Assembly (NCBI GenBank): GCA_964276515.1
Contig: OZ193910.1
Span: forward strand, 3,162,001-3,226,000
Source: Gordius albopunctatus
Taxonomy: Eukaryota
Direction of reading: 5' to 3'
DNA: 64,000 nt
Within the stretch, counting starts at the first letter, position 1. Each line of letters opens with the position of its first letter. The position numbers were made by a program, and so were the translations under genes. A model generated the notes under the pieces. It saw nothing but the letters and a program-made list of their open reading frames with translations. It did no database searches and was not told where the DNA came from. Positions 2,282 to 41,454 of this stretch are shown piece by piece.

Positions 2282-3049
2282 ATATATATAATTATATATT
2301 TAATTTTTACCTTTTATTTATCGAATTTTAATGTTTTTAAATTTGTCATATATATCATTTATCCTTATAAAATGTGTAGAAAATAGAGAACTTAAATTTT
2401 ATAAAAAATCGCCATTTTGTGAAATAGGGTTTTAATAAAATGCGAAATCAAGAATATATAATAGGTCACGTGGGCCATATGAACATTCGAATCGAAGATA
2501 TGGGTTGTTGCTTCAAATAAACACCATGCACTTGAGTTAAAATTTATTTATATAATATTTATTATATAATTTGTGGCATGTGTATTGAGATATACAGTAT
2601 GCAGATCGTGTAAAGTAATATGTTGATAACTCTTATAAATATATTAAAAGAAAATTTTGGTGTTACAACTTAGAAAGTGTCTAAGTTTCGACACAAGCTA
2701 CTCAATCTAATAAAGTAGAAAGCATTTGATGGAGGTTGAGAAGATTAGTAATTTTGATAATTTATATTATTTTATAAAATCTGATTGTAAAAAAACAATT
2801 TTGAAAAATGATTGCTAGCGAAAACTTAGAAAATAATAAGAAAACGATTTTCTAACACAAGTTTAAAATGTTAAACAAAAAAAATATTCAAGGCATTATC
2901 CTTAAAAAATTTATTACTCAGTAATCGCGCTGTCTTTCAATTACATATAAGAGAATTGTGTATATGTAGTTTATTAAATCATCGTTATCTGATATAAGTT
3001 AAAATTATAAAATGTTAAGCATTTATTATAAATCATTTCAATAATTAAC

Positions 3050-3085
3050 ATTAGTTTGCTTTGCTAATTCTTTTTCGTTTCCTTG
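3050..3085 (-). CDS. Putative unique exon following the array (QGNEKELAKQTN)
   Basis: Preceded by a divergent copy of the array intron ending in aatcag. Followed by GT at 3049 and a 61-nt AT-rich intron-like segment ending in tatcag at 2989. Confidence 0.5.
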
Positions 3086-6000
3086 CTGATTGAAAATAAA
3101 AAAGAAATTAGAAATATATAGTAAATATTATATTTATAATTTTGTTAATATTTATAAAATAGTAGAATTACCATTGCTATCAACGTGTTTTCTCCTTTCA
3201 AAAATAAATCAATCTTTTCTTCGTTTCCTTGCTGATTTATAAAAAAGAAATTTGAAATATATAGTAAATATTATATTTATAATTTTGTTAATATTTATAA
3301 AATAGTAGAATTACCATTCTAATCAACGTGTTTTCTCCTTTCAAAAATAAATCAATCTCTTCTTCATTTCCTTGCTGATTTATAAAAAAGAAATTTGAAA
3401 TATATAGCAAATATTATATTTATAATTTTGTTAATATTTATAAAATAGTAGAATTACCATTCTAATCAACGTGTTTTCTCCTTTCAAAAATAAATCAATC
3501 TCTTCTTCATTTCCTTGCTGATTTATAAAAAAGAAATTTGAAATATATAGCAAATATTATATTTATTTTTTTGTTAATATTTATAAAATAGTAGAATTAC
3601 CATTCTAATCAACGTTTTTTCTCCTTTCAAAAATAAATCAATCTCTTCTTCATTTCCTTGCTGATTTATAAAAAAGAAATTTGAAATATATAGCAAATAT
3701 TATATTTATAATTTTGTTAATATTTATAAAATAGTAGAATTACCATTCTAATCAACGTTTTTTCTCCTTTCAAAAATAAATCAATCTCTTCTTCATTTCC
3801 TTGCTGATTTATAAAAAATAAATTTGAAATATATAGCAAATATTATATTTATAGATTTGTTAATATTTATAAAATAGTAGAATTACCATTCTAATCAACG
3901 TGTTTTCTCCTTTCAAAAATAAATCAATCTCTTCTTCATTTCCTTGCTGATTTATAAAAAAGAAATTTGAAATATATAGCAAATATTATATTTATAATTT
4001 TGTTAATATTTATAAAATAGTAGAATTACCATTCTAATCAACGTGTTTTCTCCTTTCAAAAATAAATTAATCTTTTCTTCGTTTCCTTGCTGATTTATAA
4101 AAAAGAAATTTGAAATATATAGCAAATATTATATTTATAATTTTGTTAATATTTATAAAATAGTAGAATTACCATTCTAATCAACGTGTTTTCTCCTTTC
4201 AAAAATAAATTAATCTCTTCTTCATTTCCTTGCTGATTTATAAAAAAGAAATTTGAAATATATAGCAAATATTATATTTATAATTTTGTTAATATTTATA
4301 AAATAGTAGAATTACCATTCTAATCAACGTTTTTTCTCCTTTCAAAAATAAATTAATCTTTTCTTCGTTTCCTTGCTGATTTATAAAAAAGAAATCTTTC
4401 AAAAATAAATTAATCTTTTCTTCATTTCCTTGCTGATTTATAAAAAAGAAATTTGAAATATATAGCAAATATTATATTTATAATTTTGTTAATATTTATA
4501 AAATAGTAGAATTACCATTCTAATCAACGTTTTTTCTCCTTTCAAAAATAAATCAATCTCTTCTTTTTCCTTGCTGATTTATAAAAAATAAATTTGAAAT
4601 ATATAGCAAATATTATATTTATAGATTTGTTAATATTTATAAAATAGTAGAATTACCATTCTAATCAACGTGTTTTCTCCTTTCAAAAATAAATCAATCT
4701 CTTCTTTTTCCTTGCTGATTTATAAAAAAGAAATTTGAAATATATAGCAAATATTATATTTATAGATTTGTTAATATTTATAAAATAGTAGAATTACCAT
4801 TCTAATCAACGTGTTTTCTCCTTTCAAAAATATATTAATCTTTTCTTCATTTCCTTGCTGATTTATAAAAAAGAAATTTGAAATATATAGCAAATATTAT
4901 ATTTATAATTTTGTTAATATTTATAAAATAGTAGAATTACCATTCTAATCAACGTGTTTTCTCCTTTCAAAAATAAATCAATCTTTTCTTCGTTTCCTTG
5001 CTGATTTATAAAAAAGAAATTTGAAATATATAGCAAATATTATATTTATAATTTTGTTAATATTTATAAAATAGTAGAATTACCATTCTAATCAACGTGT
5101 TTTCTCCTTTCAAAAATAAATCAATCTCTTCTTCATTTCCTTGCTGATTTATAAAAAAGAAATTTGAAATATATAGCAAATATTATATTTATAATTTTGT
5201 TAATATTTATAAAATAGTAGAATTACCATTCTAATCAACGTGTTTTCTCCTTTCAAAAATATATTAATCTTTTCTTCGTTTCCTTGCTGATTTATAAAAA
5301 AGAAATTTGAAATATATAGCAAATATTATATTTATAATTTTGTTAATATTTATAAAATAGTAGAATTACCATTCTAATCAACGTGTTTTCTCCTTTCAAA
5401 AATAAATCAATCTCTTCTTCGTTTCCTTGCTGATTTATAAAAAAGAAATTTGAAATATATAGCAAATATTATATTTATAATTTTGTTAATATTTATAAAA
5501 TAGTAGAATTACCATTGCTATCAACGTGTTTTCTCCTTTCAAAAATAAATTAATCTTTTCTTCGTTTCCTTGCTGATTTATAAAAAAGAAATTTGAAATA
5601 TATAGCAAATATTATATTTATAATTTTGTTAATATTTATAAAATAGTAGAATTACCATTGCTATCAACGTGTTTTCTCCTTTCAAAAATAAATCAATCTC
5701 TTCTTCGTTTCCTTGCTGATTTATAAAAAAGAAATTTGAAATATATAGCAAATATTATATTTATAATTTTGTTAATATTTATAAAATAGTAGAATTACCA
5801 TTGCTATCAACGTGTTTTCTCCTTTCAAAAATAAATCAATCCCTTCTTCATTTCCTTGCTGATTTATAAAAAAGAAATTTGAAATATATAGCAAATATTA
5901 TATTTATAATTTTGTTAATATTTATAAAATAGTAGAATTACCATTCTAATCAACGTGTTTTCTCCTTTCAAAAATAAATCAATCTCTTCTTCATTTCCTT

Positions 6001-9000
6001 GCTGATTTATAAAAAAGAAATTTGAAATATATAGCAAATATTATATTTATAATTTTGTTAATATTTATAAAATAGTAGAATTACCATTCTAATCAACGTG
6101 TTTTCTCCTTTCAAAAATAAATCAATCTCTTCTTCATTTCCTTGCTGATTTATAAAAAAGAAATTTGAAATATATAGCAAATATTATATTTATAATTTTG
6201 TTAATATTTATAAAATAGTAGAATTACCATTGCTATCAACGTGTTTTCTCCTTTCAAAAATAAATCAATCTTTTCTTCATTTCCTTGCTGATTTATAAAA
6301 AAGAAATTTGAAATATATAGCAAATATTATATTTATAATTTTGTTAATATTTATAAAATAGTAGAATTACCATTGCTATCAACGTGTTTTCTCCTTTCAA
6401 AAATAAATCAATCTTTTCTTCATTTCCTTGCTGATTTATAAAAAAGAAATTTGAAATATATAGCAAATATTATATTTATAATTTTGTTAATATTTATAAA
6501 ATAGTAGAATTACCATTGCTATCAACGTGTTTTCTCCTTTCAAAAATAAATCAATCTCTTCTTCATTTCCTTGCTGATTTATAAAAAAGAAATTTGAAAT
6601 ATATAGCAAATATTATATTTATAATTTTGTTAATATTTATAAAATAGTAGAATTACCATTCTAATCAACGTGTTTTCTCCTTTCAAAAATAAATCAATCT
6701 CTTCTTCATTTCCTTGCTGATTTATAAAAAAGAAATTTGAAATATATAGCAAATATTATATTTATAATTTTGTTAATATTTATAAAATAGTAGAATTACC
6801 ATTCTAATCAACGTGTTTTCTCCTTTCAAAAATAAATCAATCTTTTCTTCATTTCCTTGCTGATTTATAAAAAAGAAATTTGAAATATATAGCAAATATT
6901 ATATTTATAATTTTGTTAATATTTATAAAATAGTAGAATTACCATTCTAATCAACGTGTTTTCTCCTTTCAAAAATAAATCAATCTCTTCTTCGTTTCCT
7001 TGCTGATTTATAAAAAAGAAATTTGAAATATATAGCAAATATTATATTTATAATTTTGTTAATATTTATAAAATAGTAGAATTACCATTCTAATCAACGT
7101 GTTTTCTCCTTTCAAAAATAAATCAATCTCTTCTTCATTTCCTTGCTGATTTATAAAAAAGAAATTTGAAATATATAGCAAATATTATATTTATAATTTT
7201 GTTAATATTTATAAAATAGTAGAATTACCATTCTAATCAACGTGTTTTCTCCTTTCAAAAATAAATCAATCTTTTCTTCATTTCCTTGCTGATTTATAAA
7301 AAAGAAATTTGAAATATATAGCAAATATTATATTTATAATTTTGTTAATATTTATAAAATAGTAGAATTACCATTGCTATCAACGTGTTTTCTCCTTTCA
7401 AAAATAAATCAATCTCTTCTTCATTTCCTTGCTGATTTATAAAAAAGAAATTTGAAATATATAGCAAATATTATATTTATAATTTTGTTAATATTTATAA
7501 AATAGTAGAATTACCATTCTAATCAACGTGTTTTCTCCTTTCAAAAATAAATCAATCTCTTCTTCATTTCCTTGCTGATTTATAAAAAAGAAATTTGAAA
7601 TATATAGTAAATATTATATTTATAATTTTGTTAATATTTATAAAATAGTAGAATTACCATTCTAATCAACGTGTTTTCTCCTTTCAAAAATAAATCAATC
7701 TCTTCTTCATTTCCTTGCTGATTTATAAAAAAGAAATTTGAAATATATAGTAAATATTATATTTATAATTTTGTTAATATTTATAAAATAGTAGAATTAC
7801 CATTGCTATCAACGTGTTTTCTCCTTTCAAAAACAAATTAATCTTTTCTTCGTTTCCTTGCTGATTTATAAAAAAGAAATTTGAAATATATAGTAAATAT
7901 TATATTTATAATTTTGTTAATATTTATAAAATAGTAGAATTACCATTGCTATCAACGTGTTTTCTCCTTTCAAAAATAAATTAATCTTTTCTTCATTTCC
8001 TTGCTGATTTATAAAAAAGAAATTTGAAATATATAGCAAATATTATATTTATAATTTTGTTAATATTTATAAAATAGTAGAATTACCATTGCTATCAACG
8101 TGTTTTCTCCTTTCAAAAATAAATCAATCTCTTCTTCATTTCCTTGCTGATTTATAAAAAAGAAATTTGAAATATATAGCAAATATTATATTTATAATTT
8201 TGTTAATATTTATAAAATAGTAGAATTACCATTCTAATCAACGTGTTTTCTCCTTTCAAAAATAAATCAATCTCTTCTTCATTTCCTTGCTGATTTATAA
8301 AAAAGAAATTTGAAATATATAGTAAATATTATATTTATAATTTTGTTAATATTTATAAAATAGTAGAATTACCATTGCTATCAACGTGTTTTCTCCTTTC
8401 AAAAATAAATTAATCTTTTCTTCATTTCCTTGCTGATTTATAAAAAAGAAATTTGAAATATATAGCAAATATTATATTTATAATTTTGTTAATATTTATA
8501 AAATAGTAGAATTACCATTGCTATCAACGTGTTTTCTCCTTTCAAAAATAAATTAATCTTTTCTTCATTTCCTTGCTGATTTATAAAAAAGAAATTTGAA
8601 ATATATAGCAAATATTATATTTATAATTTTGTTAATATTTATAAAATAGTAGAATTACCATTGCTATCAACGTGTTTTCTCCTTTCAAAAATAAATTAAT
8701 CTTTTCTTCGTTTCCTTGCTGATTTATAAAAAAGAAATTTGAAATATATAGCAAATATTATATTTATAATTTTGTTAATATTTATAAAATAGTAGAATTA
8801 CCATTTCTATCAACGTGTTTTCTCCTTTCAAAAATAAATTAATCTTTTCTTCATTTCCTTGCTGATTTATAAAAAAGAAATTTGAAATATATAGCAAATA
8901 TTATATTTATAATTTTGTTAATATTTATAAAATAGTAGAATTACCATTTCTATCAACGTGTTTTCTCCTTTCAAAAATAAATTAATCTTTTCTTCGTTTC

Positions 9001-12000
9001 CTTGCTGATTTATAAAAAAGAAATTTGAAATATATAGCAAATATTATATTTATAATTTTGTTAATATTTATAAAATAGTAGAATTACCATTCTAATCAAC
9101 GTGTTTTCTCCTTTCAAAAATAAATCAATCTCTTCTTCATTTCCTTGCTGATTTATAAAAAAGAAATTTGAAATATATAGTAAATATTATATTTATAATT
9201 TTGTTAATATTTATAAAATAGTAGAATTACCATTGCTATCAACGTGTTTTCTCCTTTCAAAAACAAATTAATCTTTTCTTCGTTTCCTTGCTGATTTATA
9301 AAAAAGAAATTTGAAATATATAGTAAATATTATATTTATAATTTTGTTAATATTTATAAAATAGTAGAATTACCATTGCTATCAACGTGTTTTCTCCTTT
9401 CAAAAATAAATTAATCTTTTCTTCATTTCCTTGCTGATTTATAAAAAAGAAATTTGAAATATATAGCAAATATTATATTTATAATTTTGTTAATATTTAT
9501 AAAATAGTAGAATTACCATTGCTATCAACGTGTTTTCTCCTTTCAAAAATAAATCAATCTCTTCTTCATTTCCTTGCTGATTTATAAAAAAGAAATTTGA
9601 AATATATAGCAAATATTATATTTATAATTTTGTTAATATTTATAAAATAGTAGAATTACCATTCTAATCAACGTGTTTTCTCCTTTCAAAAATAAATCAA
9701 TCTCTTCTTCATTTCCTTGCTGATTTATAAAAAAGAAATTTGAAATATATAGTAAATATTATATTTATAATTTTGTTAATATTTATAAAATAGTAGAATT
9801 ACCATTGCTATCAACGTGTTTTCTCCTTTCAAAAATAAATCAATCTCTTCTTCATTTCCTTGCTGATTTATAAAAAAGAAATTTGAAATATATAGTAAAT
9901 ATTATATTTATAATTTTGTTAATATTTATAAAATAGTAGAATTACCATTGCTATCAACGTGTTTTCTCCTTTCAAAAACAAATTAATCTTTTCTTCGTTT
10001 CCTTGCTGATTTATAAAAAAGAAATTTGAAATATATAGTAAATATTATATTTATAATTTTGTTAATATTTATAAAATAGTAGAATTACCATTGCTATCAA
10101 CGTGTTTTCTCCTTTCAAAAATAAATTAATCTTTTCTTCATTTCCTTGCTGATTTATAAAAAAGAAATTTGAAATATATAGCAAATATTATATTTATAAT
10201 TTTGTTAATATTTATAAAATAGTAGAATTACCATTGCTATCAACGTGTTTTCTCCTTTCAAAAATAAATCAATCTCTTCTTCATTTCCTTGCTGATTTAT
10301 AAAAAAGAAATTTGAAATATATAGCAAATATTATATTTATAATTTTGTTAATATTTATAAAATAGTAGAATTACCATTGCTATCAACGTGTTTTCTCCTT
10401 TCAAAAATAAATCAATCTCTTCTTCATTTCCTTGCTGATTTATAAAAAAGAAATTTGAAATATCTAGCAAATATTATATTTATAATTTTGTTAATATTTA
10501 TAAAATAGTAGAATTACCATTGCTATCAACGTGTTTTCTCCTTTCAAAAATAAATTAATCTTTTCTTCATTTCCTTGCTGATTTATAAAAAAGAAATTTG
10601 AAATATATAGTAAATATTATATTTATAATTTTGTTAATATTTATAAAATAGTAGAATTACCATTGCTATCAACGTGTTTTCTCCTTTCAAAAATAAATTA
10701 ATCTTTTCTTCGTTTCCTTGCTGATTTATAAAAAAGAAATTTGAAATATATAGCAAATATTATATTTATAATTTTGTTAATATTTATAAAATAGTAGAAT
10801 TACCATTGCTATCAACGTGTTTTCTCCTTTCAAAAATAAATTAATCTTTTCTTCATTTCCTTGCTGATTTATAAAAAAGAAATTTGAAATATATAGCAAA
10901 TATTATATTTATAATTTTGTTAATATTTATAAAATAGTAGAATTACCATTGCTATCAACGTGTTTTCTCCTTTCAAAAATAAATCAATCTCTTCTTCATT
11001 TCCTTGCTGATTTATAAAAAAGAAATTTGAAATATATAGCAAATATTATATTTATAATTTTGTTAATATTTATAAAATAGTAGAATTACCATTGCTATCA
11101 ACGTGTTTTCTCCTTTCAAAAATAAATTAATCTTTTCTTCGTTTCCTTGCTGATTTATAAAAAAGAAATTTGAAATATATAGCAAATATTATATTTATAA
11201 TTTTGTTAATATTTATAAAATAGTAGAATTACCATTTCTATCAACGTGTTTTCTCCTTTCAAAAATAAATTAATCTTTTCTTCGTTTCCTTGCTGATTTA
11301 TAAAAAAGAAATTTGAAATATATAGTAAATATTATATTTATAATTTTGTTAATATTTATAAAATAGTAGAATTACCATTGCTATCAACGTGTTTTCTCCT
11401 TTCAAAAATAAATCAATCTCTTCTTCATTTCCTTGCTGATTTATAAAAAAGAAATTTGAAATATATAGCAAATAATATATTTATAATTTTGTTAATATTT
11501 ATAAAATAGTAGAATTACCATTGCTATCAACGTGTTTTCTCCTTTCAAAAATAAATCAATCTCTTCTTCATTTCCTTGCTGATTTATAAAAAAGAAATTT
11601 GAAATATATAGCAAATATTATATTTATAATTTTGTTAATATTTATAAAATAGTAGAATTACCATTGCTATCAACGTGTTTTCTCCTTTCAAAAATAAATT
11701 AATCTTTTCTTCATTTCCTTGCTGATTTATAAAAAAGAAATTTGAAATATATAGCAAATATTATATTTATAATTTTGTTAATATTTATAAAATAGTAGAA
11801 TTACCATTGCTATCAACGTGTTTTCTCCTTTCAAAAATAAATTAATCTTTTCTTCGTTTCCTTGCTGATTTATAAAAAAGAAATTTGAAATATATAGCAA
11901 ATATTATATTTATAATTTTGTTAATATTTATAAAATAGTAGAATTACCATTTCTATCAACGTGTTTTCTCCTTTCAAAAATAAATTAATCTTTTCTTCAT

Positions 12001-15000
12001 TTCCTTGCTGATTTATAAAAAAGAAATTTGAAATATATAGCAAATATTATATTTATAATTTTGTTAATATTTATAAAATAGTAGAATTACCATTTCTATC
12101 AACGTGTTTTCTCCTTTCAAAAATAAATTAATCTTTTCTTCGTTTCCTTGCTGATTTATAAAAAAGAAATTTGAAATATATAGCAAATATTATATTTATA
12201 ATTTTGTTAATATTTATAAAATAGTAGAATTACCATTGCTATCAACGTGTTTTCTCCTTTCAAAAATAAATTAATCTTTTCTTCGTTTCCTTGCTGATTT
12301 ATAAAAAAGAAATTTGAAATATATAGCAAATATTATATTTATAATTTTGTTAATATTTATAAAATAGTAGAATTACCATTGCTATCAACGTGTTTTCTCC
12401 TTTCAAAAATAAATTAATCTTTTCTTCATTTCCTTGCTGATTTATAAAAAAGAAATTTGAAATATATAGCAAATATTATATTTATAATTTTGTTAATATT
12501 TATAAAATAGTAGAATTACCATTGCTATCAACGTGTTTTCTCCTTTCAAAAATAAATTAATCTTTTCTTCGTTTCCTTGCTGATTTATAAAAAAGAAATT
12601 TGAAATATATAGCAAATATTATATTTATAATTTTGTTAATATTTATAAAATAGTAGAATTACCATTCTAATCAACGTGTTTTCTCCTTTCAAAAATAAAT
12701 CAATCTCTTCTTCATTTCCTTGCTGATTTATAAAAAAGAAATTTGAAATATATAGCAAATATTATATTTATAATTTTGTTAATATTTATAAAATAGTAGA
12801 ATTACCATTTCTATCAACGTGTTTTCTCCTTTCAAAAATAAATTAATCTTTTCTTCGTTTCCTTGCTGATTTATAAAAAAGAAATTTGAAATATATAGCA
12901 AATATTATATTTATAATTTTGTTAATATTTATAAAATAGTAGAATTACCATTGCTATCAACGTGTTTTCTCCTTTCAAAAATAAATCAATCTCTTCTTCA
13001 TTTCCTTGCTGATTTATAAAAAAGAAATTTGAAATATATAGCAAATATTATATTTATAATTTTGTTAATATTTATAAAATAGTAGAATTACCATTTCTAT
13101 CAACGTGTTTTCTCCTTTCAAAAATAAATTAATCTTTTCTTCGTTTCCTTGCTGATTTATAAAAAAGAAATTTGAAATATATAGCAAATATTATATTTAT
13201 AATTTTGTTAATATTTATAAAATAGTAGAATTACCATTGCTATCAACGTGTTTTCTCCTTTCAAAAATAAATCAATCTCTTCTTCATTTCCTTGCTGATT
13301 TATAAAAAAGAAATTTGAAATATATAGCAAATAATATATTTATAATTTTGTTAATATTTATAAAATAGTAGAATTACCATTCTAATCAACGTGTTTTCTC
13401 CTTTCAAAAATAAATTAATCTTTTCTTCGTTTCCTTGCTGATTTATAAAAAAGAAATTTGAAATATATAGCAAATATTATATTTATAATTTTGTTAATAT
13501 TTATAAAATAGTAGAATTACCATTCTAATCAACGTGTTTTCTCCTTTCAAAAATAAATTAATCTTTTCTTCGTTTCCTTGCTGATTTATAAAAAAGAAAT
13601 TTGAAATATATAGCAAATATTATATTTATAATTTTGTTAATATTTATAAAATAGTAGAATTACCATTCTAATCAACGTGTTTTCTCCTTTCAAAAATAAA
13701 TTAATCTTTTCTTCGTTTCCTTGCTGATTTATAAAAAAGAAATTTGAAATATATAGTAAATATTATATTTATAATTTTGTTAATATTTATAAAATAGTAG
13801 AATTACCATTGCTATCAACGTGTTTTCTCCTTTCAAAAATAAATTAATCTTTTCTTCATTTCCTTGCTGATTTATAAAAAAGAAATTTGAAATATATAGC
13901 AAATATTATATTTATAATTTTGTTAATATTTATAAAATAGTAGAATTACCATTGCTATCAACGTGTTTTCTCCTTTCAAAAATAAATTAATCTTTTCTTC
14001 ATTTCCTTGCTGATTTATAAAAAAGAAATTTGAAATATATAGTAAATATTATATTTATAATTTTGTTAATATTTATAAAATAGTAGAATTACCATTGCTA
14101 TCAACGTGTTTTCTCCTTTCAAAAATAAATTAATCTTTTCTTCATTTCCTTGCTGATTTATAAAAAAGAAATTTGAAATATATAGCAAATATTATATTTA
14201 TAATTTTGTTAATATTTATAAAATAGTAGAATTACCATTGCTATCAACGTGTTTTCTCCTTTCAAAAATAAATCAATCTCTTCTTCATTTCCTTGCTGAT
14301 TTATAAAAAAGAAATTTGAAATATATAGCAAATATTATATTTATAATTTTGTTAATATTTATAAAATAGTAGAATTACCATTGCTATCAACGTGTTTTCT
14401 CCTTTCAAAAATAAATTAATCTTTTCTTCATTTCCTTGCTGATTTATAAAAAAGAAATTTGAAATATATAGCAAATATTATATTTATAATTTTGTTAATA
14501 TTTATAAAATAGTAGAATTACCATTGCTATCAACGTGTTTTCTCCTTTCAAAAATAAATTAATCTTTTCTTCGTTTCCTTGCTGATTTATAAAAAAGAAA
14601 TTTGAAATATATAGCAAATATTATATTTATAATTTTGTTAATATTTATAAAATAGTAGAATTACCATTTCTATCAACGTGTTTTCTCCTTTCAAAAATAA
14701 ATTAATCTTTTCTTCATTTCCTTGCTGATTTATAAAAAAGAAATTTGAAATATATAGCAAATATTATATTTATAATTTTGTTAATATTTATAAAATAGTA
14801 GAATTACCATTTCTATCAACGTGTTTTCTCCTTTCAAAAATAAATTAATCTTTTCTTCGTTTCCTTGCTGATTTATAAAAAAGAAATTTGAAATATATAG
14901 CAAATATTATATTTATAATTTTGTTAATATTTATAAAATAGTAGAATTACCATTGCTATCAACGTGTTTTCTCCTTTCAAAAATAAATTAATCTTTTCTT

Positions 15001-21000: not shown

Positions 21001-24000
21001 TCTTTTCTTCATTTCCTTGCTGATTTATAAAAAAGAAATTTGAAATATATAGCAAATATTATATTTATAATTTTGTTAATATTTATAAAATAGTAGAATT
21101 ACCATTGCTATCAACGTGTTTTCTCCTTTCAAAAATAAATTAATCTTTTCTTCATTTCCTTGCTGATTTATAAAAAAGAAATTTGAAATATATAGCAAAT
21201 ATTATATTTATAATTTTGTTAATATTTATAAAATAGTAGAATTACCATTGCTATCAACGTGTTTTCTCCTTTCAAAAATAAATCAATCTCTTCTTCATTT
21301 CCTTGCTGATTTATAAAAAAGAAATTTGAAATATATAGCAAATATTATATTTATAATTTTGTTAATATTTATAAAATAGTAGAATTACCATTGCTATCAA
21401 CGTGTTTTCTCCTTTCAAAAATAAATCAATCTCTTCTTCATTTCCTTGCTGATTTATAAAAAAGAAATTTGAAATATATAGTAAATATTATATTTATAAT
21501 TTTGTTAATATTTATAAAATAGTAGAATTACCATTGCTATCAACGTGTTTTCTCCTTTCAAAAACAAATTAATCTTTTCTTCGTTTCCTTGCTGATTTAT
21601 AAAAAAGAAATTTGAAATATATAGTAAATATTATATTTATAATTTTGTTAATATTTATAAAATAGTAGAATTACCATTGCTATCAACGTGTTTTCTCCTT
21701 TCAAAAATAAATTAATCTTTTCTTCATTTCCTTGCTGATTTATAAAAAAGAAATTTGAAATATATAGCAAATATTATATTTATAATTTTGTTAATATTTA
21801 TAAAATAGTAGAATTACCATTGCTATCAACGTGTTTTCTCCTTTCAAAAATAAATCAATCTCTTCTTCATTTCCTTGCTGATTTATAAAAAAGAAATTTG
21901 AAATATATAGCAAATATTATATTTATAATTTTGTTAATATTTATAAAATAGTAGAATTACCATTGCTATCAACGTGTTTTCTCCTTTCAAAAATAAATCA
22001 ATCTCTTCTTCATTTCCTTGCTGATTTATAAAAAAGAAATTTGAAATATATAGTAAATATTATATTTATAATTTTGTTAATATTTATAAAATAGTAGAAT
22101 TACCATTGCTATCAACGTGTTTTCTCCTTTCAAAAACAAATTAATCTTTTCTTCGTTTCCTTGCTGATTTATAAAAAAGAAATTTGAAATATATAGTAAA
22201 TATTATATTTATAATTTTGTTAATATTTATAAAATAGTAGAATTACCATTGCTATCAACGTGTTTTCTCCTTTCAAAAATAAATTAATCTTTTCTTCATT
22301 TCCTTGCTGATTTATAAAAAAGAAATTTGAAATATATAGCAAATATTATATTTATAATTTTGTTAATATTTATAAAATAGTAGAATTACCATTGCTATCA
22401 ACGTGTTTTCTCCTTTCAAAAATAAATCAATCTCTTCTTCATTTCCTTGCTGATTTATAAAAAAGAAATTTGAAATATATAGTAAATATTATATTTATAA
22501 TTTTGTTAATATTTATAAAATAGTAGAATTACCATTGCTATCAACGTGTTTTCTCCTTTCAAAAATAAATTAATCTTTTCTTCATTTCCTTGCTGATTTA
22601 TAAAAAAGAAATTTGAAATATATAGTAAATATTATATTTATAATTTTGTTAATATTTATAAAATAGTAGAATTACCATTCTAATCAACGTGTTTTCTCCT
22701 TTCAAAAATAAATTAATCTTTTCTTCGTTTCCTTGCTGATTTATAAAAAAGAAATTTGAAATATATAGCAAATATTATATTTATAATTTTGTTAATATTT
22801 ATAAAATAGTAGAATTACCATTTCTATCAACGTGTTTTCTCCTTTCAAAAATAAATTAATCTTTTCTTCGTTTCCTTGCTGATTTATAAAAAAGAAATTT
22901 GAAATATATAGCAAATATTATATTTATAATTTTGTTAATATTTATAAAATAGTAGAATTACCATTGCTATCAACGTGTTTTCTCCTTTCAAAAATAAATT
23001 AATCTTTTCTTCATTTCCTTGCTGATTTATAAAAAAGAAATTTGAAATATATAGCAAATATTATATTTATAATTTTGTTAATATTTATAAAATAGTAGAA
23101 TTACCATTCTAATCAACGTGTTTTCTCCTTTCAAAAATAAATTAATCTTTTCTTCGTTTCCTTGCTGATTTATAAAAAAGAAATTTGAAATATATAGCAA
23201 ATATTATATTTATAATTTTGTTAATATTTATAAAATAGTAGAATTACCATTCTAATCAACGTGTTTTCTCCTTTCAAAAATAAATTAATCTTTTCTTCGT
23301 TTCCTTGCTGATTTATAAAAAAGAAATTTGAAATATATAGCAAATATTATATTTATAATTTTGTTAATATTTATAAAATAGTAGAATTACCATTGCTATC
23401 AACGTGTTTTCTCCTTTCAAAAATAAATCAATCTCTTCTTCATTTCCTTGCTGATTTATAAAAAAGAAATTTGAAATATATAGCAAATAATATATTTATA
23501 ATTTTGTTAATATTTATAAAATAGTAGAATTACCATTCTAATCAACGTGTTTTCTCCTTTCAAAAATAAATTAATCTTTTCTTCGTTTCCTTGCTGATTT
23601 ATAAAAAAGAAATTTGAAATATATAGCAAATATTATATTTATAATTTTGTTAATATTTATAAAATAGTAGAATTACCATTCTAATCAACGTGTTTTCTCC
23701 TTTCAAAAATAAATTAATCTTTTCTTCGTTTCCTTGCTGATTTATAAAAAAGAAATTTGAAATATATAGCAAATATTATATTTATAATTTTGTTAATATT
23801 TATAAAATAGTAGAATTACCATTCTAATCAACGTGTTTTCTCCTTTCAAAAATAAATTAATCTTTTCTTCGTTTCCTTGCTGATTTATAAAAAAGAAATT
23901 TGAAATATATAGCAAATATTATATTTATAATTTTGTTAATATTTATAAAATAGTAGAATAACCATTCTAATCAACGTGTTTTCTCCTTTCAAAAATAAAT

Positions 24001-27000
24001 TAATCTTTTCTTCGTTTCCTTGCTGATTTATAAAAAAGAAATTTGAAATATATAGTAAATATTATATTTATAATTTTGTTAATATTTATAAAATAGTAGA
24101 ATTACCATTGCTATCAACGTGTTTTCTCCTTTCAAAAATAAATTAATCTTTTCTTCATTTCCTTGCTGATTTATAAAAAAGAAATTTGAAATATATAGCA
24201 AATATTATATTTATAATTTTGTTAATATTTATAAAATAGTAGAATTACCATTGCTATCAACGTGTTTTCTCCTTTCAAAAATAAATTAATCTTTTCTTCA
24301 TTTCCTTGCTGATTTATAAAAAAGAAATTTGAAATATATAGCAAATATTATATTTATAATTTTGTTAATATTTATAAAATAGTAGAATTACCATTGCTAT
24401 CAACGTGTTTTCTCCTTTCAAAAATAAATCAATCTTTTCTTCATTTCCTTGCTGATTTATAAAAAAGAAATTTGAAATATATAGCAAATATTATATTTAT
24501 AATTTTGTTAATATTTATAAAATAGTAGAATTACCATTGATATCAACGTGTTTTCTCCTTTCAAAAATAAATCAATCTCTTCTTCATTTCCTTGCTGATT
24601 TATAAAAAAGAAATTTGAAATATATAGCAAATATTATATTTATAATTTTGTTAATATTTATAAAATAGTAGAATTACCATTGCTATCAACGTGTTTTCTC
24701 CTTTCAAAAATAAATCAATCTCTTCTTCATTTCCTTGCTGATTTATAAAAAAGAAATTTGAAATATATAGTAAATATTATATTTATAATTTTGTTAATAT
24801 TTATGAAATAGTAGAATTACCATTGCTATCAACGTGTTTTCTCCTTTCAAAAATAAATTAATCTTTTCTTCATTTCCTTGCTGATTTATAAAAAAGAAAT
24901 TTGAAATATATAGCAAATATTATATTTATAATTTTGTTAATATTTATAAAATAGTAGAATTACCATTGCTATCAACGTGTTTTCTCCTTTCAAAAATAAA
25001 TCAATCTCTTCTTCATTTCCTTGCTGATTTATAAAAAAGAAATTTGAAATATATAGCAAATATTATATTTATAATTTTGTTAATATTTATAAAATAGTAG
25101 AATTACCATTCTAATCAACGTGTTTTCTCCTTTCAAAAATAAATTAATCTTTTCTTCATTTCCTTGCTGATTTATAAAAAAGAAAATTGAAATATATAGC
25201 AAATATTATATTTATAATTTTGTTAATATTTACAAAATAGTAGAATTACCATTCTAATCAACGTTTTTTCTCCTTTCAAAAATAAATTAATCTCTTCTTC
25301 GTTTCCTTGCTGATTTAAAATAAAAAATAAATTTGAAATATATAGCAAATATTATATTTATAATTTTGTTAATATTTATAAAATAGTAGAATTACCATTC
25401 TAATCAACGTTTTTTCCCCTTTCAAAAATAAATTAATCTCTTCTTCGTTTCCTTGCTGATTTATAAAAAAGAAAATTGAAATATATAGCAAATATTATAT
25501 TTATAATTTTGTTAATATTTATAAAATAGTAGAATTACCATTGCTATCAACGTGTTTTCTCCTTTCAAAAATAAATCAATCTTTTCTTCATTTCCTTGCT
25601 GATTTATAAAAAAGAAATTTGAAATATATAGCAAATATTATATTTATAATTTTGTTAATATTTATAAAATAGTAGAATTACCATTGCTATCAACGTGTTT
25701 TCTCCTTTCAAAAATAAATCAATCTCTTCTTCATTTCCTTGCTGATTTATAAAAAAGAAATTTGAAATATATAGTAAATATTATATTTATAATTTTGTTA
25801 ATATTTATAAAATAGTAGAATTACCATTGCTATCAACGTGTTTTCTCCTTTCAAAAATAAATTAATCTTTTCTTCATTTCCTTGCTGATTTATAAAAAAG
25901 AAATTTGAAATATATAGCAAATATTATATTTATAATTTTGTTAATATTTATAAAATAGTAGAATTACCATTGCTATCAACGTGTTTTCTCCTTTCAAAAA
26001 CAAATTAATCTTTTCTTCATTTCCTTGCTGATTTATAAAAAAGAAATTTGAAATATATATCAAATATTATATTTATAATTTTGTTAATATTTATAAAATA
26101 GTAGAATTACCATTGCTATCAACGTGTTTTCTCCTTTCAAAAATAAATTAATCTTTTCTTCATTTCCTTGCTGATTTATAAAAAAGAAATTTGAAATATA
26201 TAGCAAATATTATATTTATAATTTTGTTAATATTTATAAAATAGTAGAATTACCATTGCTATCAACGTGTTTTCTCCTTTCAAAAATAAATTAATCTTTT
26301 CTTCATTTCCTTGCTGATTTATAAAAAAGAAATTTGAAATATATATCAAATATTATATTTATAATTTTGTTAATATTTATAAAATAGTAGAATTACCATT
26401 GCTATCAACGTGTTTTCTCCTTTCAAAAATAAATTAATCTTTTCTTCATTTCCTTGCTGATTTATAAAAAAGAAATTTGAAATATATAGCAAATATTATA
26501 TTTATAATTTTGTTAATATTTATAAAATAGTAGAATTACCATTGCTATCAACGTGTTTTCTCCTTTCAAAAATAAATTAATCTTTTCTTCATTTCCTTGC
26601 TGATTTATAAAAAAGAAATTTGAAATATATATCAAATATTATATTTATAATTTTGTTAATATTTATAAAATAGTAGAATTACCATTGCTATCAACGTGTT
26701 TTCTCCTTTCAAAAATAAATTAATCTTTTCTTCATTTCCTTGCTGATTTATAAAAAAGAAATTTGAAATATATAGCAAATATTATATTTATAATTTTGTT
26801 AATATTTATAAAATAGTAGAATTACCATTGCTATCAACGTGTTTTCTCCTTTCAAAAATAAATCAATCTCTTCTTCATTTCCTTGCTGATTTATAAAAAA
26901 GAAAATTGAAATATATAGCAAATATTATATTTATAATTTTGTTAATATTTATAAAATAGTAGAATTACCATTGCTATCAACGTGTTTTCTCCTTTCAAAA

Positions 27001-30000
27001 ATAAATCAATCTCTTCTTCATTTCCTTGCTGATTTATAAAAAAGAAATTTGAAATATATAGTAAATATTATATTTATAATTTTGTTAATATTTATAAAAT
27101 AGTAGAATTACCATTGCTATCAACGTGTTTTCTCCTTTCAAAAATAAATTAATCTTTTCTTCATTTCCTTGCTGATTTATAAAAAAGAAATTTGAAATAT
27201 ATAGCAAATATTATATTTATAATTTTGTTAATATTTATAAAATAGTAGAATTACCATTGCTATCAACGTGTTTTCTCCTTTCAAAAATAAATTAATCTTT
27301 TCTTCATTTCCTTGCTGATTTATAAAAAAGAAATTTGAAATATATAGCAAATATTATATTTATAATTTTGTTAATATTTATAAAATAGTAGAATTACCAT
27401 TGCTATCAACGTGTTTTCTCCTTTCAAAAATAAATCAATCTCTTCTTCATTTCCTTGCTGATTTATAAAAAAGAAATTTGAAATATATAGCAAATATTAT
27501 ATTTATAATTTTGTTAATATTTATAAAATAGTAGAATTACCATTGCTATCAACGTGTTTTCTCCTTTCAAAAATAAATCAATCTCTTCTTCATTTCCTTG
27601 CTGATTTATAAAAAAGAAATTTGAAATATATAGTAAATATTATATTTATAATTTTGTTAATATTTATAAAATAGTAGAATTACCATTGCTATCAACGTGT
27701 TTTCTCCTTTCAAAAACAAATTAATCTTTTCTTCGTTTCCTTGCTGATTTATAAAAAAGAAATTTGAAATATATAGTAAATATTATATTTATAATTTTGT
27801 TAATATTTATAAAATAGTAGAATTACCATTGCTATCAACGTGTTTTCTCCTTTCAAAAATAAATTAATCTTTTCTTCATTTCCTTGCTGATTTATAAAAA
27901 AGAAATTTGAAATATATAGCAAATATTATATTTATAATTTTGTTAATATTTATAAAATAGTAGAATTACCATTCTAATCAACGTGTTTTCTCCTTTCAAA
28001 AATAAATTAATCTTTTCTTCGTTTCCTTGCTGATTTATAAAAAAGAAATTTGAAATATATAGCAAATATTATATTTATAATTTTGTTAATATTTATAAAA
28101 TAGTAGAATTACCATTTCTATCAACGTGTTTTCTCCTTTCAAAAATAAATTAATCTTTTCTTCGTTTCCTTGCTGATTTATAAAAAAGAAATTTGAAATA
28201 TATAGCAAATATTATATTTATAATTTTGTTAATATTTATAAAATAGTAGAATTACCATTGCTATCAACGTGTTTTCTCCTTTCAAAAATAAATTAATCTT
28301 TTCTTCATTTCCTTGCTGATTTATAAAAAAGAAATTTGAAATATATAGCAAATATTATATTTATAATTTTGTTAATATTTATAAAATAGTAGAATTACCA
28401 TTGCTATCAACGTGTTTTCTCCTTTCAAAAATAAATCAATCTCTTCTTCATTTCCTTGCTGATTTATAAAAAAGAAATTTGAAATATATAGCAAATAATA
28501 TATTTATAATTTTGTTAATATTTATAAAATAGTAGAATTACCATTCTAATCAACGTGTTTTCTCCTTTCAAAAATAAATTAATCTTTTCTTCGTTTCCTT
28601 GCTGATTTATAAAAAAGAAATTTGAAATATATAGCAAATATTATATTTATAATTTTGTTAATATTTATAAAATAGTAGAATTACCATTCTAATCAACGTG
28701 TTTTCTCCTTTCAAAAATAAATTAATCTTTTCTTCGTTTCCTTGCTGATTTATAAAAAAGAAATTTGAAATATATAGCAAATATTATATTTATAATTTTG
28801 TTAATATTTATAAAATAGTAGAATTACCATTCTAATCAACGTGTTTTCTCCTTTCAAAAATAAATTAATCTTTTCTTCGTTTCCTTGCTGATTTATAAAA
28901 AAGAAATTTGAAATATATAGCAAATATTATATTTATAATTTTGTTAATATTTATAAAATAGTAGAATTACCATTCTAATCAACGTGTTTTCTCCTTTCAA
29001 AAATAAATTAATCTTTTCTTCGTTTCCTTGCTGATTTATAAAAAAGAAATTTGAAATATATAGTAAATATTATATTTATAATTTTGTTAATATTTATAAA
29101 ATAGTAGAATTACCATTGCTATCAACGTGTTTTCTCCTTTCAAAAATAAATTAATCTTTTCTTCATTTCCTTGCTGATTTATAAAAAAGAAATTTGAAAT
29201 ATATAGCAAATATTATATTTATAATTTTGTTAATATTTATAAAATAGTAGAATTACCATTGCTATCAACGTGTTTTCTCCTTTCAAAAATAAATTAATCT
29301 TTTCTTCATTTCCTTGCTGATTTATAAAAAAGAAATTTGAAATATATAGTAAATATTATATTTATAATTTTGTTAATATTTATAAAATAGTAGAATTACC
29401 ATTGCTATCAACGTGTTTTCTCCTTTCAAAAATAAATTAATCTTTTCTTCATTTCCTTGCTGATTTATAAAAAAGAAATTTGAAATATATAGCAAATATT
29501 ATATTTATAATTTTGTTAATATTTATAAAATAGTAGAATTACCATTGCTATCAACGTGTTTTCTCCTTTCAAAAATAAATCAATCTTTTCTTCATTTCCT
29601 TGCTGATTTATAAAAAAGAAATTTGAAATATATAGCAAATATTATATTTATAATTTTGTTAATATTTATAAAATAGTAGAATTACCATTGATATCAACGT
29701 GTTTTCTCCTTTCAAAAATAAATCAATCTCTTCTTCATTTCCTTGCTGATTTATAAAAAAGAAATTTGAAATATATAGCAAATATTATATTTATAATTTT
29801 GTTAATATTTATAAAATAGTAGAATTACCATTGCTATCAACGTGTTTTCTCCTTTCAAAAATAAATCAATCTCTTCTTCATTTCCTTGCTGATTTATAAA
29901 AAAGAAATTTGAAATATATAGTAAATATTATATTTATAATTTTGTTAATATTTATGAAATAGTAGAATTACCATTGCTATCAACGTGTTTTCTCCTTTCA

Positions 30001-33000
30001 AAAATAAATTAATCTTTTCTTCATTTCCTTGCTGATTTATAAAAAAGAAATTTGAAATATATAGCAAATATTATATTTATAATTTTGTTAATATTTATAA
30101 AATAGTAGAATTACCATTGCTATCAACGTGTTTTCTCCTTTCAAAAATAAATCAATCTCTTCTTCATTTCCTTGCTGATTTATAAAAAAGAAATTTGAAA
30201 TATATAGCAAATATTATATTTATAATTTTGTTAATATTTATAAAATAGTAGAATTACCATTCTAATCAACGTGTTTTCTCCTTTCAAAAATAAATTAATC
30301 TTTTCTTCATTTCCTTGCTGATTTATAAAAAAGAAAATTGAAATATATAGCAAATATTATATTTATAATTTTGTTAATATTTACAAAATAGTAGAATTAC
30401 CATTCTAATCAACGTTTTTTCTCCTTTCAAAAATAAATTAATCTCTTCTTCGTTTCCTTGCTGATTTAAAATAAAAAATAAATTTGAAATATATAGCAAA
30501 TATTATATTTATAATTTTGTTAATATTTATAAAATAGTAGAATTACCATTCTAATCAACGTTTTTTCCCCTTTCAAAAATAAATTAATCTCTTCTTCGTT
30601 TCCTTGCTGATTTATAAAAAAGAAAATTGAAATATATAGCAAATATTATATTTATAATTTTGTTAATATTTATAAAATAGTAGAATTACCATTGCTATCA
30701 ACGTGTTTTCTCCTTTCAAAAATAAATCAATCTTTTCTTCATTTCCTTGCTGATTTATAAAAAAGAAATTTGAAATATATAGCAAATATTATATTTATAA
30801 TTTTGTTAATATTTATAAAATAGTAGAATTACCATTCTAATCAACGTTTTTTCCCCTTTCAAAAATAAATTAATCTCTTCTTCATTTCCTTGCTGATTTA
30901 TAAAAAAGAAATTTGAAATATATAGTAAATATTATATTTATAATTTTGTTAATATTTATAAAATAGTAGAATTACCATTGCTATCAACGTGTTTTCTCCT
31001 TTCAAAAATAAATTAATCTTTTCTTCATTTCCTTGCTGATTTATAAAAAAGAAATTTGAAATATATAGCAAATATTATATTTATAATTTTGTTAATATTT
31101 ATAAAATAGTAGAATTACCATTGCTATCAACGTGTTTTCTCCTTTCAAAAATAAATCAATCTCTTCTTCATTTCCTTGCTGATTTATAAAAAAGAAATTT
31201 GAAATATATAGCAAATATTATATTTATAATTTTGTTAATATTTATAAAATAGTAGAATTACCATTCGAATCAACGTTTTTTCTCCTTTCAAAAATAAATT
31301 AATCTTTTCTTCATTTCCTTGCTGATTTATAAAAAAGAAATTTGAAATATATAGCAAATATTATATTTATAATTTTGTTAATATTTATAAAATAGTAGAG
31401 TTACCATTGCTATCAACGTGTTTTCTCCTTTCAAAAATAAATTAATCTTTTCTTCATTTCCTTGCTGATTTATAAAAAAGAAATTTGAAATATATAGCAA
31501 ATATTATATTTATAATTTTGTTAATATTTATAAAATAGTAGAATTACCATTGCTATCAACGTGTTTTCTCCTTTCAAAAATAAATTAATCTTTTCTTCAT
31601 TTCCTTGCTGATTTATAAAAAAGAAATTTGAAATATATAGCAAATATTATATTTATAATTTTGTTAATATTTATAAAATAGTAGAATTACCATTCTAATC
31701 AACGTGTTTTCTCCTTTCAAAAATAAATTAATCTTTTCTTCATTTCCTTGCTGATTTATAAAAAAGAAAATTGAAATATATAGCAAATATTATATTTATA
31801 ATTTTGTTAATATTTACAAAATAGTAGAATTACCATTCTAATCAACGTTTTTTCTCCTTTCAAAAATAAATTAATCTCTTCTTCGTTTCCTTGCTGATTT
31901 AAAATAAAAAATAAATTTGAAATATATAGCAAATATTATATTTATAATTTTGTTAATATTTATAAAATAGTAGAATTACCATTCTAATCAACGTTTTTTC
32001 CCCTTTCAAAAATAAATTAATCTCTTCTTCGTTTCCTTGCTGATTTATAAAAAAGAAAATTGAAATATATAGCAAATATTATATTTATAATTTTGTTAAT
32101 ATTTATAAAATAGTAGAATTACCATTGTAATCAACGTTTTTTCCCCTTTCAAAAATAAATTAATCTCTTCTTCGTTTCCTTGCTGATTTATAAAAAAGAA
32201 ATTTGAAATATATAGCAAATATTATATTTATAATTTTGTTAATATTTATAAAATAGTAGAATTACCATTGCTATCAACGTGTTTTCTCCTTTCAAAAATA
32301 AATCAATCTCTTCTTCATTTCCTTGCTGATTTATAAAAAAGAAATTTGAAATATATAGTAAATATTATATTTATAATTTTGTTAATATTTATAAAATAGT
32401 AGAATTACCATTCTAATCAACGTTTTTTCTCCTTTCAAAAATAAATTAATCTTTTCTTCATTTCCTTGCTGATTTATAAAAAAGAAATTTGAAATATATA
32501 GCAAATATTATATTTATAATTTTGTTAATATTTATAAAATAGTAGAGTTACCATTGCTATCAACGTGTTTTCTCCTTTCAAAAATAAATTAATCTTTTCT
32601 TCATTTCCTTGCTGATTTATAAAAAAGAAATTTGAAATATATAGCAAATATTATATTTATAATTTTGTTAATATTTATAAAATAGTAGAATTACCATTGC
32701 TATCAACGTGTTTTCTCCTTTCAAAAATAAATTAATCTTTTCTTCATTTCCTTGCTGATTTATAAAAAAGAAATTTGAAATATATAGCAAATATTATATT
32801 TATAATTTTGTTAATATTTATAAAATAGTAGAATTACCATTCTAATCAACGTGTTTTCTCCTTTCAAAAATAAATTAATCTTTTCTTCATTTCCTTGCTG
32901 ATTTATAAAAAAGAAATTTGAAATATATAGCAAATATTATATTTATAATTTTGTTAATATTTACAAAATAGTAGAATTACCATTCTAATCAACGTTTTTT

Positions 33001-34772
33001 CTCCTTTCAAAAATAAATTAATCTCTTCTTCGTTTCCTTGCTGATTTAAAATAAAAAATAAATTTGAAATATATAGCAAATATTATATTTATAATTTTGT
33101 TAATATTTATAAAATAGTAGAATTACCATTCTAATCAACGTTTTTTCTCCTTTCAAAAATAAATTAATCTCTTCTTCGTTTCCTTGCTGATTTAAAATAA
33201 AAAATAAATTTGAAATATATAGTAAATATTATATTTATAATTTTGTTAATATTTACAAAATAGTCGAATTACCATTCTAATCAACGTTTTTTCTCCTTTC
33301 AAAAATAAATTAATCTCTTCTTCGTTTCCTTGCTGATTTAAAATAAAAAATAAATTTGAAATATATAGTAAATATTATATTTATAATTTTGTTAATATTT
33401 ATAAAATAGTAGAATTACCATTGTAAAAACGTTTTTTCTCCTTTCAAAAATAAATTAATCTCTTCGTTTCCTTGCTGATTTAAAATAAAAAAGAAAATTG
33501 AAATATATAGCAAATATTATATTTATAATTTTGTTAATATTTATAAAATAGTAGAATTACCATTGTAATCAACGTGTTTTCTCCTTTCAAAAATATATTA
33601 ATCTTTTCTTCGTTTCCTTGCTGATTTATAAAAGAGAAATTTGAAATATATAGCAAATATTATATTTATAATTTTGTTAATATTTATAAAATAGTAGAAT
33701 TACCATTCTAATCAACGTTTTTTCCCCTTTCAAAAATATATTAATCTTTTCTTCGTTTCCTTGCTGATTTATAAAAGAGAAATTTGAAATATATAGCAAA
33801 TATTATATTTATAATTTTGTTAATATTTATAAAATAGTAGAATTACCATTCTAATCAACGTTTTTTCCCCTTTCAAAAATATATTAATCTTTTCTTCGTT
33901 TCCTTGCTGATTTATAAAAGAGAAATTTGAAATATATAGCAAATATTATATTTATAATTTTGTTAATATTTATAAAATAGTAGAATTACCATTCTAATCA
34001 ACGTTTTTTCCCCTTTCAAAAATAAATTCATCTCTTCCTTGTTTCCTTGCTGATTTAAAATAAAAAATAAATTTGAAATATATAGCAAATATTATATTTA
34101 TAATTTTGTTAATATTTATAAAGTAGTAGAATTACCATTCTAATCAACGTTTTTTCTCCTTTCAAAAATAAATTAATCTCTTCCTTGTTTCCTTGCTGAT
34201 TTAAAATAAAAAAGAAATTTGAAATATATAGTAAATATTATATTTATAATTTTGTTAATATTTATAAAATAGTAGAATTACCATTCTAATCAACGTTTTT
34301 TCCCCTTTCAAAAATAAATTAATCTCTTCCTTGTTTCCTTGCTGATTTAAAATAAAAAATAAATTTGAAATATATAGCAAATATTATATTTATAATTTTG
34401 TTAATATTTATAAAATAGTAGAATTACCATTTTAATCAACGTTTTTTCCCCTTTCAAAAATAAATTAATCTCTTCTTCGTTTCCTTGCTGATTTAAAATA
34501 AAAAAGAAATTTGAAATATATAGTAAATATTATATTTATAATTTTGTTAATATTTATAAAATAGTAGAATTACCATTGTAAAAACGTTTTTTCTCCTTTC
34601 AAAAATAAATTAATCTCTTCGTTTCCTTGCTGATTTAAAATAAAAAAGAAATTTGAAATATATAGCAAATATTATATTTATAATTTTGTTAATATTTATA
34701 AAATAGTAGAATTACCATTGTAATCAACGTGTTTTCTCCTTTCAAAAATAAATTAATCTCTTCTTTGCTTCT
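3050..34772 (-). repeat. 143-bp tandem array, ~220 copies; unit = 60-nt exon-like segment + 83-nt GT-AG intron-like segment
   Basis: caacg occurs at 3181, 3324, 3467, giving period 143; copy number is from length/period. Example unit: exon 3231-3172 (caa gga aac ... gca atg) and intron 3314-3232 (gtaattc...ttttttataaatcag). The array itself is certain; the exon/intron reading is inferred. Confidence 0.97.
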
Positions 34773-35071
34773 TTTAAAATTATACATTAATATTTTTACG
34801 AAAGTCTTGATTTTAAATATATATATACATTTTGAAATAATTTTTGTTAATAATTGAAGGGGTCACTTTTCCTAAAGACTTTGTTACTTTATAATATTTT
34901 TGTTATACCATTTATCGAATCCTAACATTTTAACCGACATTTCCAAATGCAACAGCCTTGCTTGGATCGTCCCTTAGGAGCATCCCTATTTTTCTTTGTA
35001 ACAATATTTGCTTTTTCATGATTCTAATTTATGTCAAAATAAACAACGATGTTTCAATCTATGCGTAGATA

Positions 35072-35657
35072 ATAGCATGTAAAGTTATTGAATTTAGGTA
35101 TAAAGGATAACTTTATATAACAACAATGAATATTCATCAAAAAAATCGGAACCAATACTTACGGAGTTGTTATTTCTGTAGGGAAACACCACATTGTTAT
35201 AAATTGCTTCTATTCTTTCGCGATATTTTATATGTTTGTCCGATATGTAGCCCTTCTCCATTAGAGACCTTTCACTGCTAGTTTGTGAAGGGGCAATTAA
35301 GCGTGATTTTCGCAAGGGGCGACTTGGAAACTTGATCGAATCGGTGTTATTTAGCTGTATTTTATAGCATGTAAAGTTCTTGAATTTAGGTATAAAGGAT
35401 AACTTTATATAACAACAATGAATATTCATCAAAAAAATCGGAACCAATACTTACGTAGTTGTTATTTCTGTAGGGAAACACCACATTGTTATAAATTGCT
35501 TCTATTCTTTCGCGATATTTTATATGTTTGTCCGATATGTAGCCCTTCTCCATTAGAGACCTTTCACTGCTAGTTTGTGAAGGGGCAATTAAGCGTGATT
35601 TTCGCAAGGGGCGACTTGGAAACTTGATGGAATCAGTGTTATTTAGCTGTATTTTAT
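35072..35657 (-). repeat. 292-bp tandem duplication covering the 3' end of the large exon and its splice donor
   Basis: 35072-35365 is nearly identical to 35364-35657. This explains why the 117-aa ORF repeats KIQLNNTDS...YKVILYT. Confidence 0.95.
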
Positions 35658-41054: not shown

Positions 41055-41454
41055 TTGATTGATATTTTTGACGTTACGTTAAAGTTAACGATCACTGAAT
41101 CCAATATTACACCGTAGCGTACAGAAATCTCGAACTTTGTAAAATACCGAACGTCAATCCCGAATTGCTATTCGTTAAAAGCACAAAATAATGAGTTTTT
41201 ACGTTATATCACGTGTTTTTCACTAGCAGGGGATTGGGTGGGGATTGGGAAAAAGCATTGTTACTTTTGACGATGCCATTGTTATAACATAAGCGTTTTT
41301 AAATTTGAACGTCAATTATTCCATATTTGAATTAGAGATAACTAATTCATTTTCCACCCCCCCCCTCCTTATTTTTTACCCTCTTTCTCACCAGGGAGGA
41401 GGGGGGGAGGAGGTAATTTGCCCCTCCCCTTCTCATCAATTTTATTAACAAGGA

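Follow-up and report, generated by a model that had tools for sequence, protein, structure and literature searches.

Is a 32-kb tandem repeat whose units resemble short exons on short introns a protein-coding array, a satellite derived from part of a gene, or an ordinary satellite that happens to look like one? The question is raised by a 143-bp repeat in Gordius albopunctatus, lying in a stretch of 64,000 nucleotides (assembly GCA_964276515.1, contig OZ193910.1, positions 3,162,001 to 3,226,000), hereafter the window, in which all positions are counted from the first letter. The array sits just behind a same-strand, intron-bearing gene without recognised relatives, referred to here as the orphan gene. 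An earlier note on this DNA had read the array as either an uninterrupted protein of about 4,400 residues or a huge pool of skippable cassette exons. The reading that we favour, with a probability of about one half, is that some 220 copies of the unit derive from one real intron and its two exon flanks, were amplified in the 3' end of the orphan gene, and do not make a giant protein.

Tandem Repeats Finder placed the 143-bp array at 3069 to 34765 (match 97%), and its anatomy, frameshifts, stop positions and block duplications can be read directly off the letters (Table 1). Parsed on the minus strand, the array yields 222 acceptors (TCAG throughout) and 221 donors that begin with GT without exception (218 GTAATT, 2 GTAACT and 1 GTTATT), and each of the 221 intron-like pieces runs from GT to CAG, which bears out the intact splice dinucleotides reported in the earlier note; the donor variants, given there as ~23960 and ~31399, are located at 32551, 31404 and 23962. 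The intron-like pieces measure 83 nt in 207 cases and 86 nt in 14, the longer form reflecting a recurrent 3-bp insertion that had been assigned to the intron correctly. The description of ~220 in-frame 60-nt exons holds for 216 of the 220 full exon-like pieces, which are 60 nt long, stop-free in frame 0 and uniformly of phase 0-0, with both remaining frames closed by stops in 216/216; it overlooked four frameshifted units of other lengths (at 34629, 33474, 4714 and 4573), the loss of the donor in one unit (4432-4376), and the absence of a standard acceptor from unit 1. Altogether 27 distinct translations occur among the 220 units. No further unit copy was found within the window outside the array, and Rfam gave 0 matches in 32000-38500.

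Two features stressed at the outset, the open frame and the untouched GT and AG, carry little weight, as 48% of 20,000 shuffled 60-mers of exon composition had at least one open frame, and the invariance of GT and AG has a chance expectation of P=0.35 given 33 variable sites out of 143. The proposal of an intron joined to a phase-0 exon fared better with respect to its layout. Sites of the observed strength around an open exon of 3n length appeared in just 0.2% of 5,000 dinucleotide shuffles, and in 0.9% when exon and intron parts were shuffled separately; at looser settings 2% and 9% of the former and 14% of the latter passed, these thresholds being simple counts chosen after the unit had been seen. 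A step in GC content coincides with the splice sites (28% in the exon part vs 12% in the intron part; Fisher p=0.013). Scored by simple counts against a splice consensus not trained on this organism, the array donor matches at 5/7 positions and the acceptor has 11/16 pyrimidines, compared with 5/7 and 4/7, and 10/16 and 11/16, for the two introns of an LRR gene in the same window, which splice to a 1,049-aa frame and whose sizes (77 and 69 nt) had rightly been likened to those of the array introns. Given the shuffle results and the GC step, the unit is probably intron-derived.

A continuous frame from N-terminus to C-terminus is absent. With all units kept, a stop follows 53 codons after the in-frame ATG of unit 1, the frame being lost in unit 3, and when the array is joined to the upstream gene the stop falls at residue 580 or 598, so that every all-unit route ends by residue 598 and the uninterrupted protein of ~4,400 residues is not supported in this haplotype. 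A frame of 4,889 aa can be assembled, which requires skipping the candidate last exon of the orphan gene, unit 1 and both 56-nt units, and additionally the use of the AG 4 nt downstream in both 58-nt units. Such skipping is made less likely by the way in which short introns are recognised: in mammalian data, those below about 250 nt are defined across the intron, and the nearest sites are paired (PMC9225289). The broken copies at both ends, together with the upstream stop, make it unlikely that a giant protein would be produced from this haplotype.

In the scenario that we propose, set in the 3' end of a fast-evolving orphan gene, unequal exchange at a short AT-rich match would have joined the first part of the terminal exon to the last part of the preceding exon, giving a 60-nt chimeric exon plus intron, and repeated unequal exchange and conversion would have expanded and mixed the copies. 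The array region is probably within the transcript of the upstream gene, where the short introns would be excised singly and all units would thus be kept. Ribosomes would terminate at the upstream stop, after 554 aa, or within unit 3, and the array would amount either to a long spliced 3' tail, with about 13 kb of RNA behind the stop, or to a repeat region in decay. An mRNA with such a long spliced tail behind its stop is a likely target of nonsense-mediated decay. This origin is supported by the shuffle-rare layout, the GC step and site scores equal to those of the LRR introns, by the ending of the array in a unique piece with a beginning like that of a unit exon, after which come a stop and AATAAA, by a second tandem duplication of exon plus intron in the neighbouring orphan gene, and by satellite-like turnover, the lack of a clear purifying signal and all-unit routes that stop by residue 598. 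We also count in its favour that an exonic AATAAA has been gained in three core units, and that a polyadenylation (poly(A)) signal is missing between the upstream stop and the array. If the array is non-coding, it would be a clean example of a satellite that arose from an entire intron; it would also test, in nature, whether short introns in 220 identical copies are spliced and how such a tail affects an mRNA.

Turnover of the array is that of a satellite: it is long and head-to-tail, evolves in concert, contains higher-order blocks and has diverged edges. Among 221 units 65 are distinct, exact block repeats span 18 units at a lag of 19 and 11 units at a lag of 16, all four haplotypes are present at site pairs 6 nt apart, and units differ from the commonest unit by 8.3 on average at the 5' edge and by 5.4-6.9 at the 3' edge, vs 2.4-3.7 in the core. 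There is no clear purifying signal on the module, and the selection tests are individually weak, all p-values on variation being rough, as array copies are not independent: 6 of 19 exon changes are synonymous (P=0.10-0.36), 0 of the 19 create a stop (P=0.25-0.41), and rare variants per site amount to 0.17-0.18 in the exon vs 0.22 in the intron. Small indel events number three in the exon (two of them frameshifting) vs one in the intron. The consensus unit contains neither AATAAA nor ATTAAA (the chance of lacking both is 17%); 5 variant units have one. These motifs, at 19723, 19580, 17292, 3567 and 34436 (minus strand), are possible premature poly(A) signals inside the array.

Several observations weigh against a non-coding origin and are best set beside the alternative that they favour, a coding array of tandem exons built like a silk gene with homogenised introns, which we regard as possible though rather doubtful. 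In this alternative, an orphan animal gene would carry more than 220 near-identical 60-nt exons on 83-nt introns and would, by an alternative 3' route, as an alternative isoform or from an intact allele, encode a protein of up to about 4,900 residues, made of the orphan's disordered N-terminal part and about 200-218 copies of a 20-residue module; the present haplotype would need edge-unit skipping or be a null allele. The exon of the 143-nt unit has a length divisible by three and a phase that fits the phase-0 upstream donors, the core holds 200 unbroken phase-0 units, an in-frame reading is possible for the 58-nt and fused units, the terminal exon carries a stop and AATAAA, and the 4,889-aa frame is available under the skips specified above. 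Diversity is 5.5x higher in the exon (0.056) than in the intron (0.010; p=0.004 by site permutation, and p=0.02 once sites 54-56 are merged), and common variants number 7 in the exon vs 1 in the intron (Fisher p=0.017, or 0.056 merged); since a neutral array does not predict this gap, ancestral heterogeneity or intron-centred conversion must be assumed, and homogenised repeated introns are known from MaSp2 (PMC9779670) and e-fibroin genes. The ratio of non-synonymous to synonymous diversity (piN/piS) is 0.45, exon changes are milder than random (p=0.01-0.08), and hydrophobic codons show either no change or conservative changes, while none of the 7 alleles at codon 19 is a stop. Moreover, the last exon of the upstream gene is a candidate predicted from sequence, and the single-copy ancestral state was not seen in the public runs described below, in a comparison that left out the 3' end of the array. 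It is mainly the exon-intron diversity gap and the 200-unit core that keep the coding alternative in consideration. Its difficulties are the frameshifts in unit 2 and at 33474, a candidate stop exon standing in between, skipping that is disfavoured with 83-nt introns (PMC9225289), the weakness of each selection test, and an upstream open reading frame (ORF) for which searches found no homolog and which, unlike secreted silks, has neither signal nor membrane segment. If it were true, the gene would exceed, in its number of homogenised exons, the largest silk gene found in print, which has 196, and its repeat unit would be far smaller; its exon count would be near the known top (titin, 364), and a giant protein would be wholly hidden in what repeat maskers call satellite DNA, the 30-kb 'satellite' being a protein domain of at least 200 exons, and a new module, dropped by annotation.

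The array could also be an ordinary AT-rich, locus-specific satellite in which GT, AG and open frame coincide by chance and which surfaced because many satellites are scanned. Lenient criteria are passed by 9-14% of shuffles and the open frame alone by 48%, the invariance of GT and AG is unsurprising, blocks of higher order and ragged edges are present, and in one contig of a public run unit 1 is swapped for a shorter TA-rich version; yet the observed site strength is reached in just 0.2-0.9% of shuffles, the GC step falls at the splice sites, a piece like a terminal exon closes the array, and the whole lies on the same strand as an intron-bearing gene and 151 nt from it, all of which leaves coincidence unlikely. 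The second proposal of the earlier note, a pool of skippable cassette exons giving many length or sequence isoforms, seems to us highly improbable. The 216 intact units are indeed all of phase 0-0, with 27 translations to choose from among the 220, but two points speak against such a pool: below about 250 nt, recognition takes place across the intron and favours nearest-site pairing (PMC9225289), and the units are near-identical, differing by few residues; the RNA folding of two units is not special either (z=-0.21).

Comparison with known systems places the array near, and outside, the silk genes. Webspinner e-fibroin genes have many small repeated exons and homogenised introns, as does the Gordius array, with 96-196 exons per gene in one species (bioRxiv 10.64898/2026.08.07.743568). 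Their repeat units, however, comprise 2-5 exons in all but one gene and are kilobases long, whereas the array unit is one predicted 60-nt exon plus an 83-nt intron, and they encode Gly/Ser/Ala silk with conserved termini, whereas the array has no silk composition or homolog and a broken frame. In Argiope MaSp2, nearly identical small introns likewise separate similar exons, with a mean intron identity of 97.6%, and introns have been proposed to aid homogenisation (PMC9779670); MaSp2 genes are, in contrast, known silk genes with recognisable termini, and the gene flanking the array is an orphan with a candidate stop before it. The array thus shares with silk genes its frame-preserving tandem units flanked by predicted splice sites and its homogenised introns (0.010 vs 0.056), and lacks a continuous frame, family termini, a secretion signal and silk composition. 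It is built like MaSp2 and e-fibroin genes but is not a member of the silk families, having no continuous frame, termini or homology. The PEVK region of titin has more than 100 short repetitive exons that were missed by gene finders (PMC6469411), but these are conserved across mammals, diverged from one another and of proven splicing, whereas the array copies are about 97% identical and lineage-specific. By analogy, a non-coding counterpart may be the 37-bp variable number tandem repeat in intron 7 of human F7, a splice junction amplified as a minisatellite whose copied sites are competent and normally silent (PMC1557585), although there the donor alone is copied, in few units, and here a whole intron with both predicted sites, in about 220 copies. 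In the literature covered, largely without subscription papers, no array of more than 200 single exon-plus-intron units of such size was found.

Two public runs of one study (X1 and X2) contain this stretch. In both, introns and flanks are covered in all 30 bins with no joint at the predicted introns, and therefore both behave as DNA; the sole joint, 36284-36471, is not GT-AG. In X2 the array bins reach depths of 31,322-100,165 vs 296 for the junction contig, up to hundreds of times deeper, where run depth does not equal copy number and one run may be the source of the window; this gives only rough support to the view that the array is not an assembly artefact. Contigs at 90-99% identity represent other alleles or paralogs of the orphan gene, in whose ORF 7/7 substitutions, among the substitutions listed, are non-synonymous; 3 and 186 nt of the ORF can be missing in frame, and one contig of each run carries a 1-nt insertion at 36187. 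One X2 contig keeps the 35162 donor and has exon gaps of 1 and 2 nt, while in another 26 letters stand in place of 34433-34786, leaving a shorter, TA-rich unit 1 that lacks both the ATG and the purine-rich half. The case for a translation start at 34787 is weakened by this version.

Table 1. Features of the array and of the orphan gene, in window coordinates.
Feature	Position	Strand	Remarks
Whole array region	3042..34805	-	degenerate unit 1, 220 full exon-like units, 221 intron-like pieces, terminal exon-like piece
Core	4798..33332	-	200 consecutive 60-nt, phase-0, stop-free units
Typical exon-like piece, QGNEEKINLFLKGENTLIAM	32695..32754	-	GC 28%, purines 68%
Typical 83-nt intron-like piece	32612..32694	-	GT...CAG; GC 12%
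Degenerate unit 1	34716..34805	-	donor intact, standard acceptor missing; in-frame ATG 34787; possible AAG acceptors 34805 and 34770
Unit 2, 56 nt	34574..34629	-	frameshifting; no frame-restoring AG within first 20 nt
Second copy of 56-nt frameshifting unit	33419..33474	-	
Two 58-nt units (4714-4657, 4573-4516)	4516..4714	-	usual acceptor leads to stop at codon 7; open from AG 4 nt downstream
Fused unit, 117 nt	4316..4432	-	donor and most of one intron deleted; in frame and open
Terminal exon-like piece, QGNEKELAKQTNVNY-stop	3042..3089	-	unique, 15 codons; first 12 nt match unit exon
AATAAA soon after terminal-piece stop	3022..3027	-	chance 12% within 60 nt
Orphan ORF, 457 aa	35455..36825	-	hydrophilic (K, N, E, D rich); ends at phase-0 GTAAGT donor
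292-bp tandem duplication	35072..35662	-	exon end and intron start; creates 192-nt phase-0 exon-like piece 35354-35163
Candidate last coding exon of orphan gene	34922..35023	-	33 codons, GC 36%, cysteine-rich end, then TAG

Within the orphan gene, the plausible acceptors at 35058 and 35023, which come next after the donor at 35162, lead to stops after 9 or 33 codons, and the stop of the candidate last exon, which is covered by an X2 contig without differences, lies 151 nt before unit 1. Neither AATAAA nor ATTAAA occurs between this stop and the array (chance 6%), which fits read-through. In the 192-nt piece created by the duplication, a new acceptor has been made from a glutamine codon, the frame is kept, and 2/3 codon differences are synonymous. 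The ORF had no homolog at E<=0.001 among near, shorter and longer proteins, the longer-protein search reaching 2,355 aa only, so that a 4,400-aa model could not appear; likewise no relative was found among 1.84 billion representatives, no Atlas match and no Pfam match, and no signal or membrane segment was predicted (maximum 19-residue hydropathy 0.6). Cysteine and basic clusters lie at both predicted ends of the protein.

Three candidate similarities were rejected. An older 'unit 0' at 34908-34806 is similar by eye and scored no better than shuffles (61/300 and 150/300 reached its score), a match in PDB between the fused 39-aa piece and the designed repeat protein 7udj was the sum of five weak QGNEE matches, none passing alone (the 20-aa exon itself had no PDB match), and a CUB match to a 49-codon frame at unit 1 was weak, with an E of 0.016 that missed the cut-off.

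Elsewhere in the window, the LRR gene used for comparison (53733-57028, minus strand) has three exons, and its two introns both end in AAG; the 1,049-aa product is predicted to begin with a signal-like segment and has an LRR C-cap and, late in the sequence, a hydrophobic stretch. A likely serpin pseudogene piece lies at 212-498 on the plus strand (Pfam PF00079, E=1.6e-6 and 1.1e-4 in two frames), its fragments matching the profile consecutively, at positions 87-136 and 138-171, and being separated by a stop and a change of frame. Broken frames of a non-long-terminal-repeat retroelement occupy 41834-44102 on the minus strand, endonuclease- and reverse-transcriptase-like by eye and weak in Pfam (E=0.053), and retroelement-like pieces without Pfam matches lie at 40399-41078 and 59996-60719. 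A second tandem repeat, at 44275-45407, has 3.2 copies of a 330-bp unit and overlaps a 118-bp pair, and a dispersed repeat recurs in the flanks at 1-160, 2040-2290 and 46488-46778, the latter two near-identical in translation.

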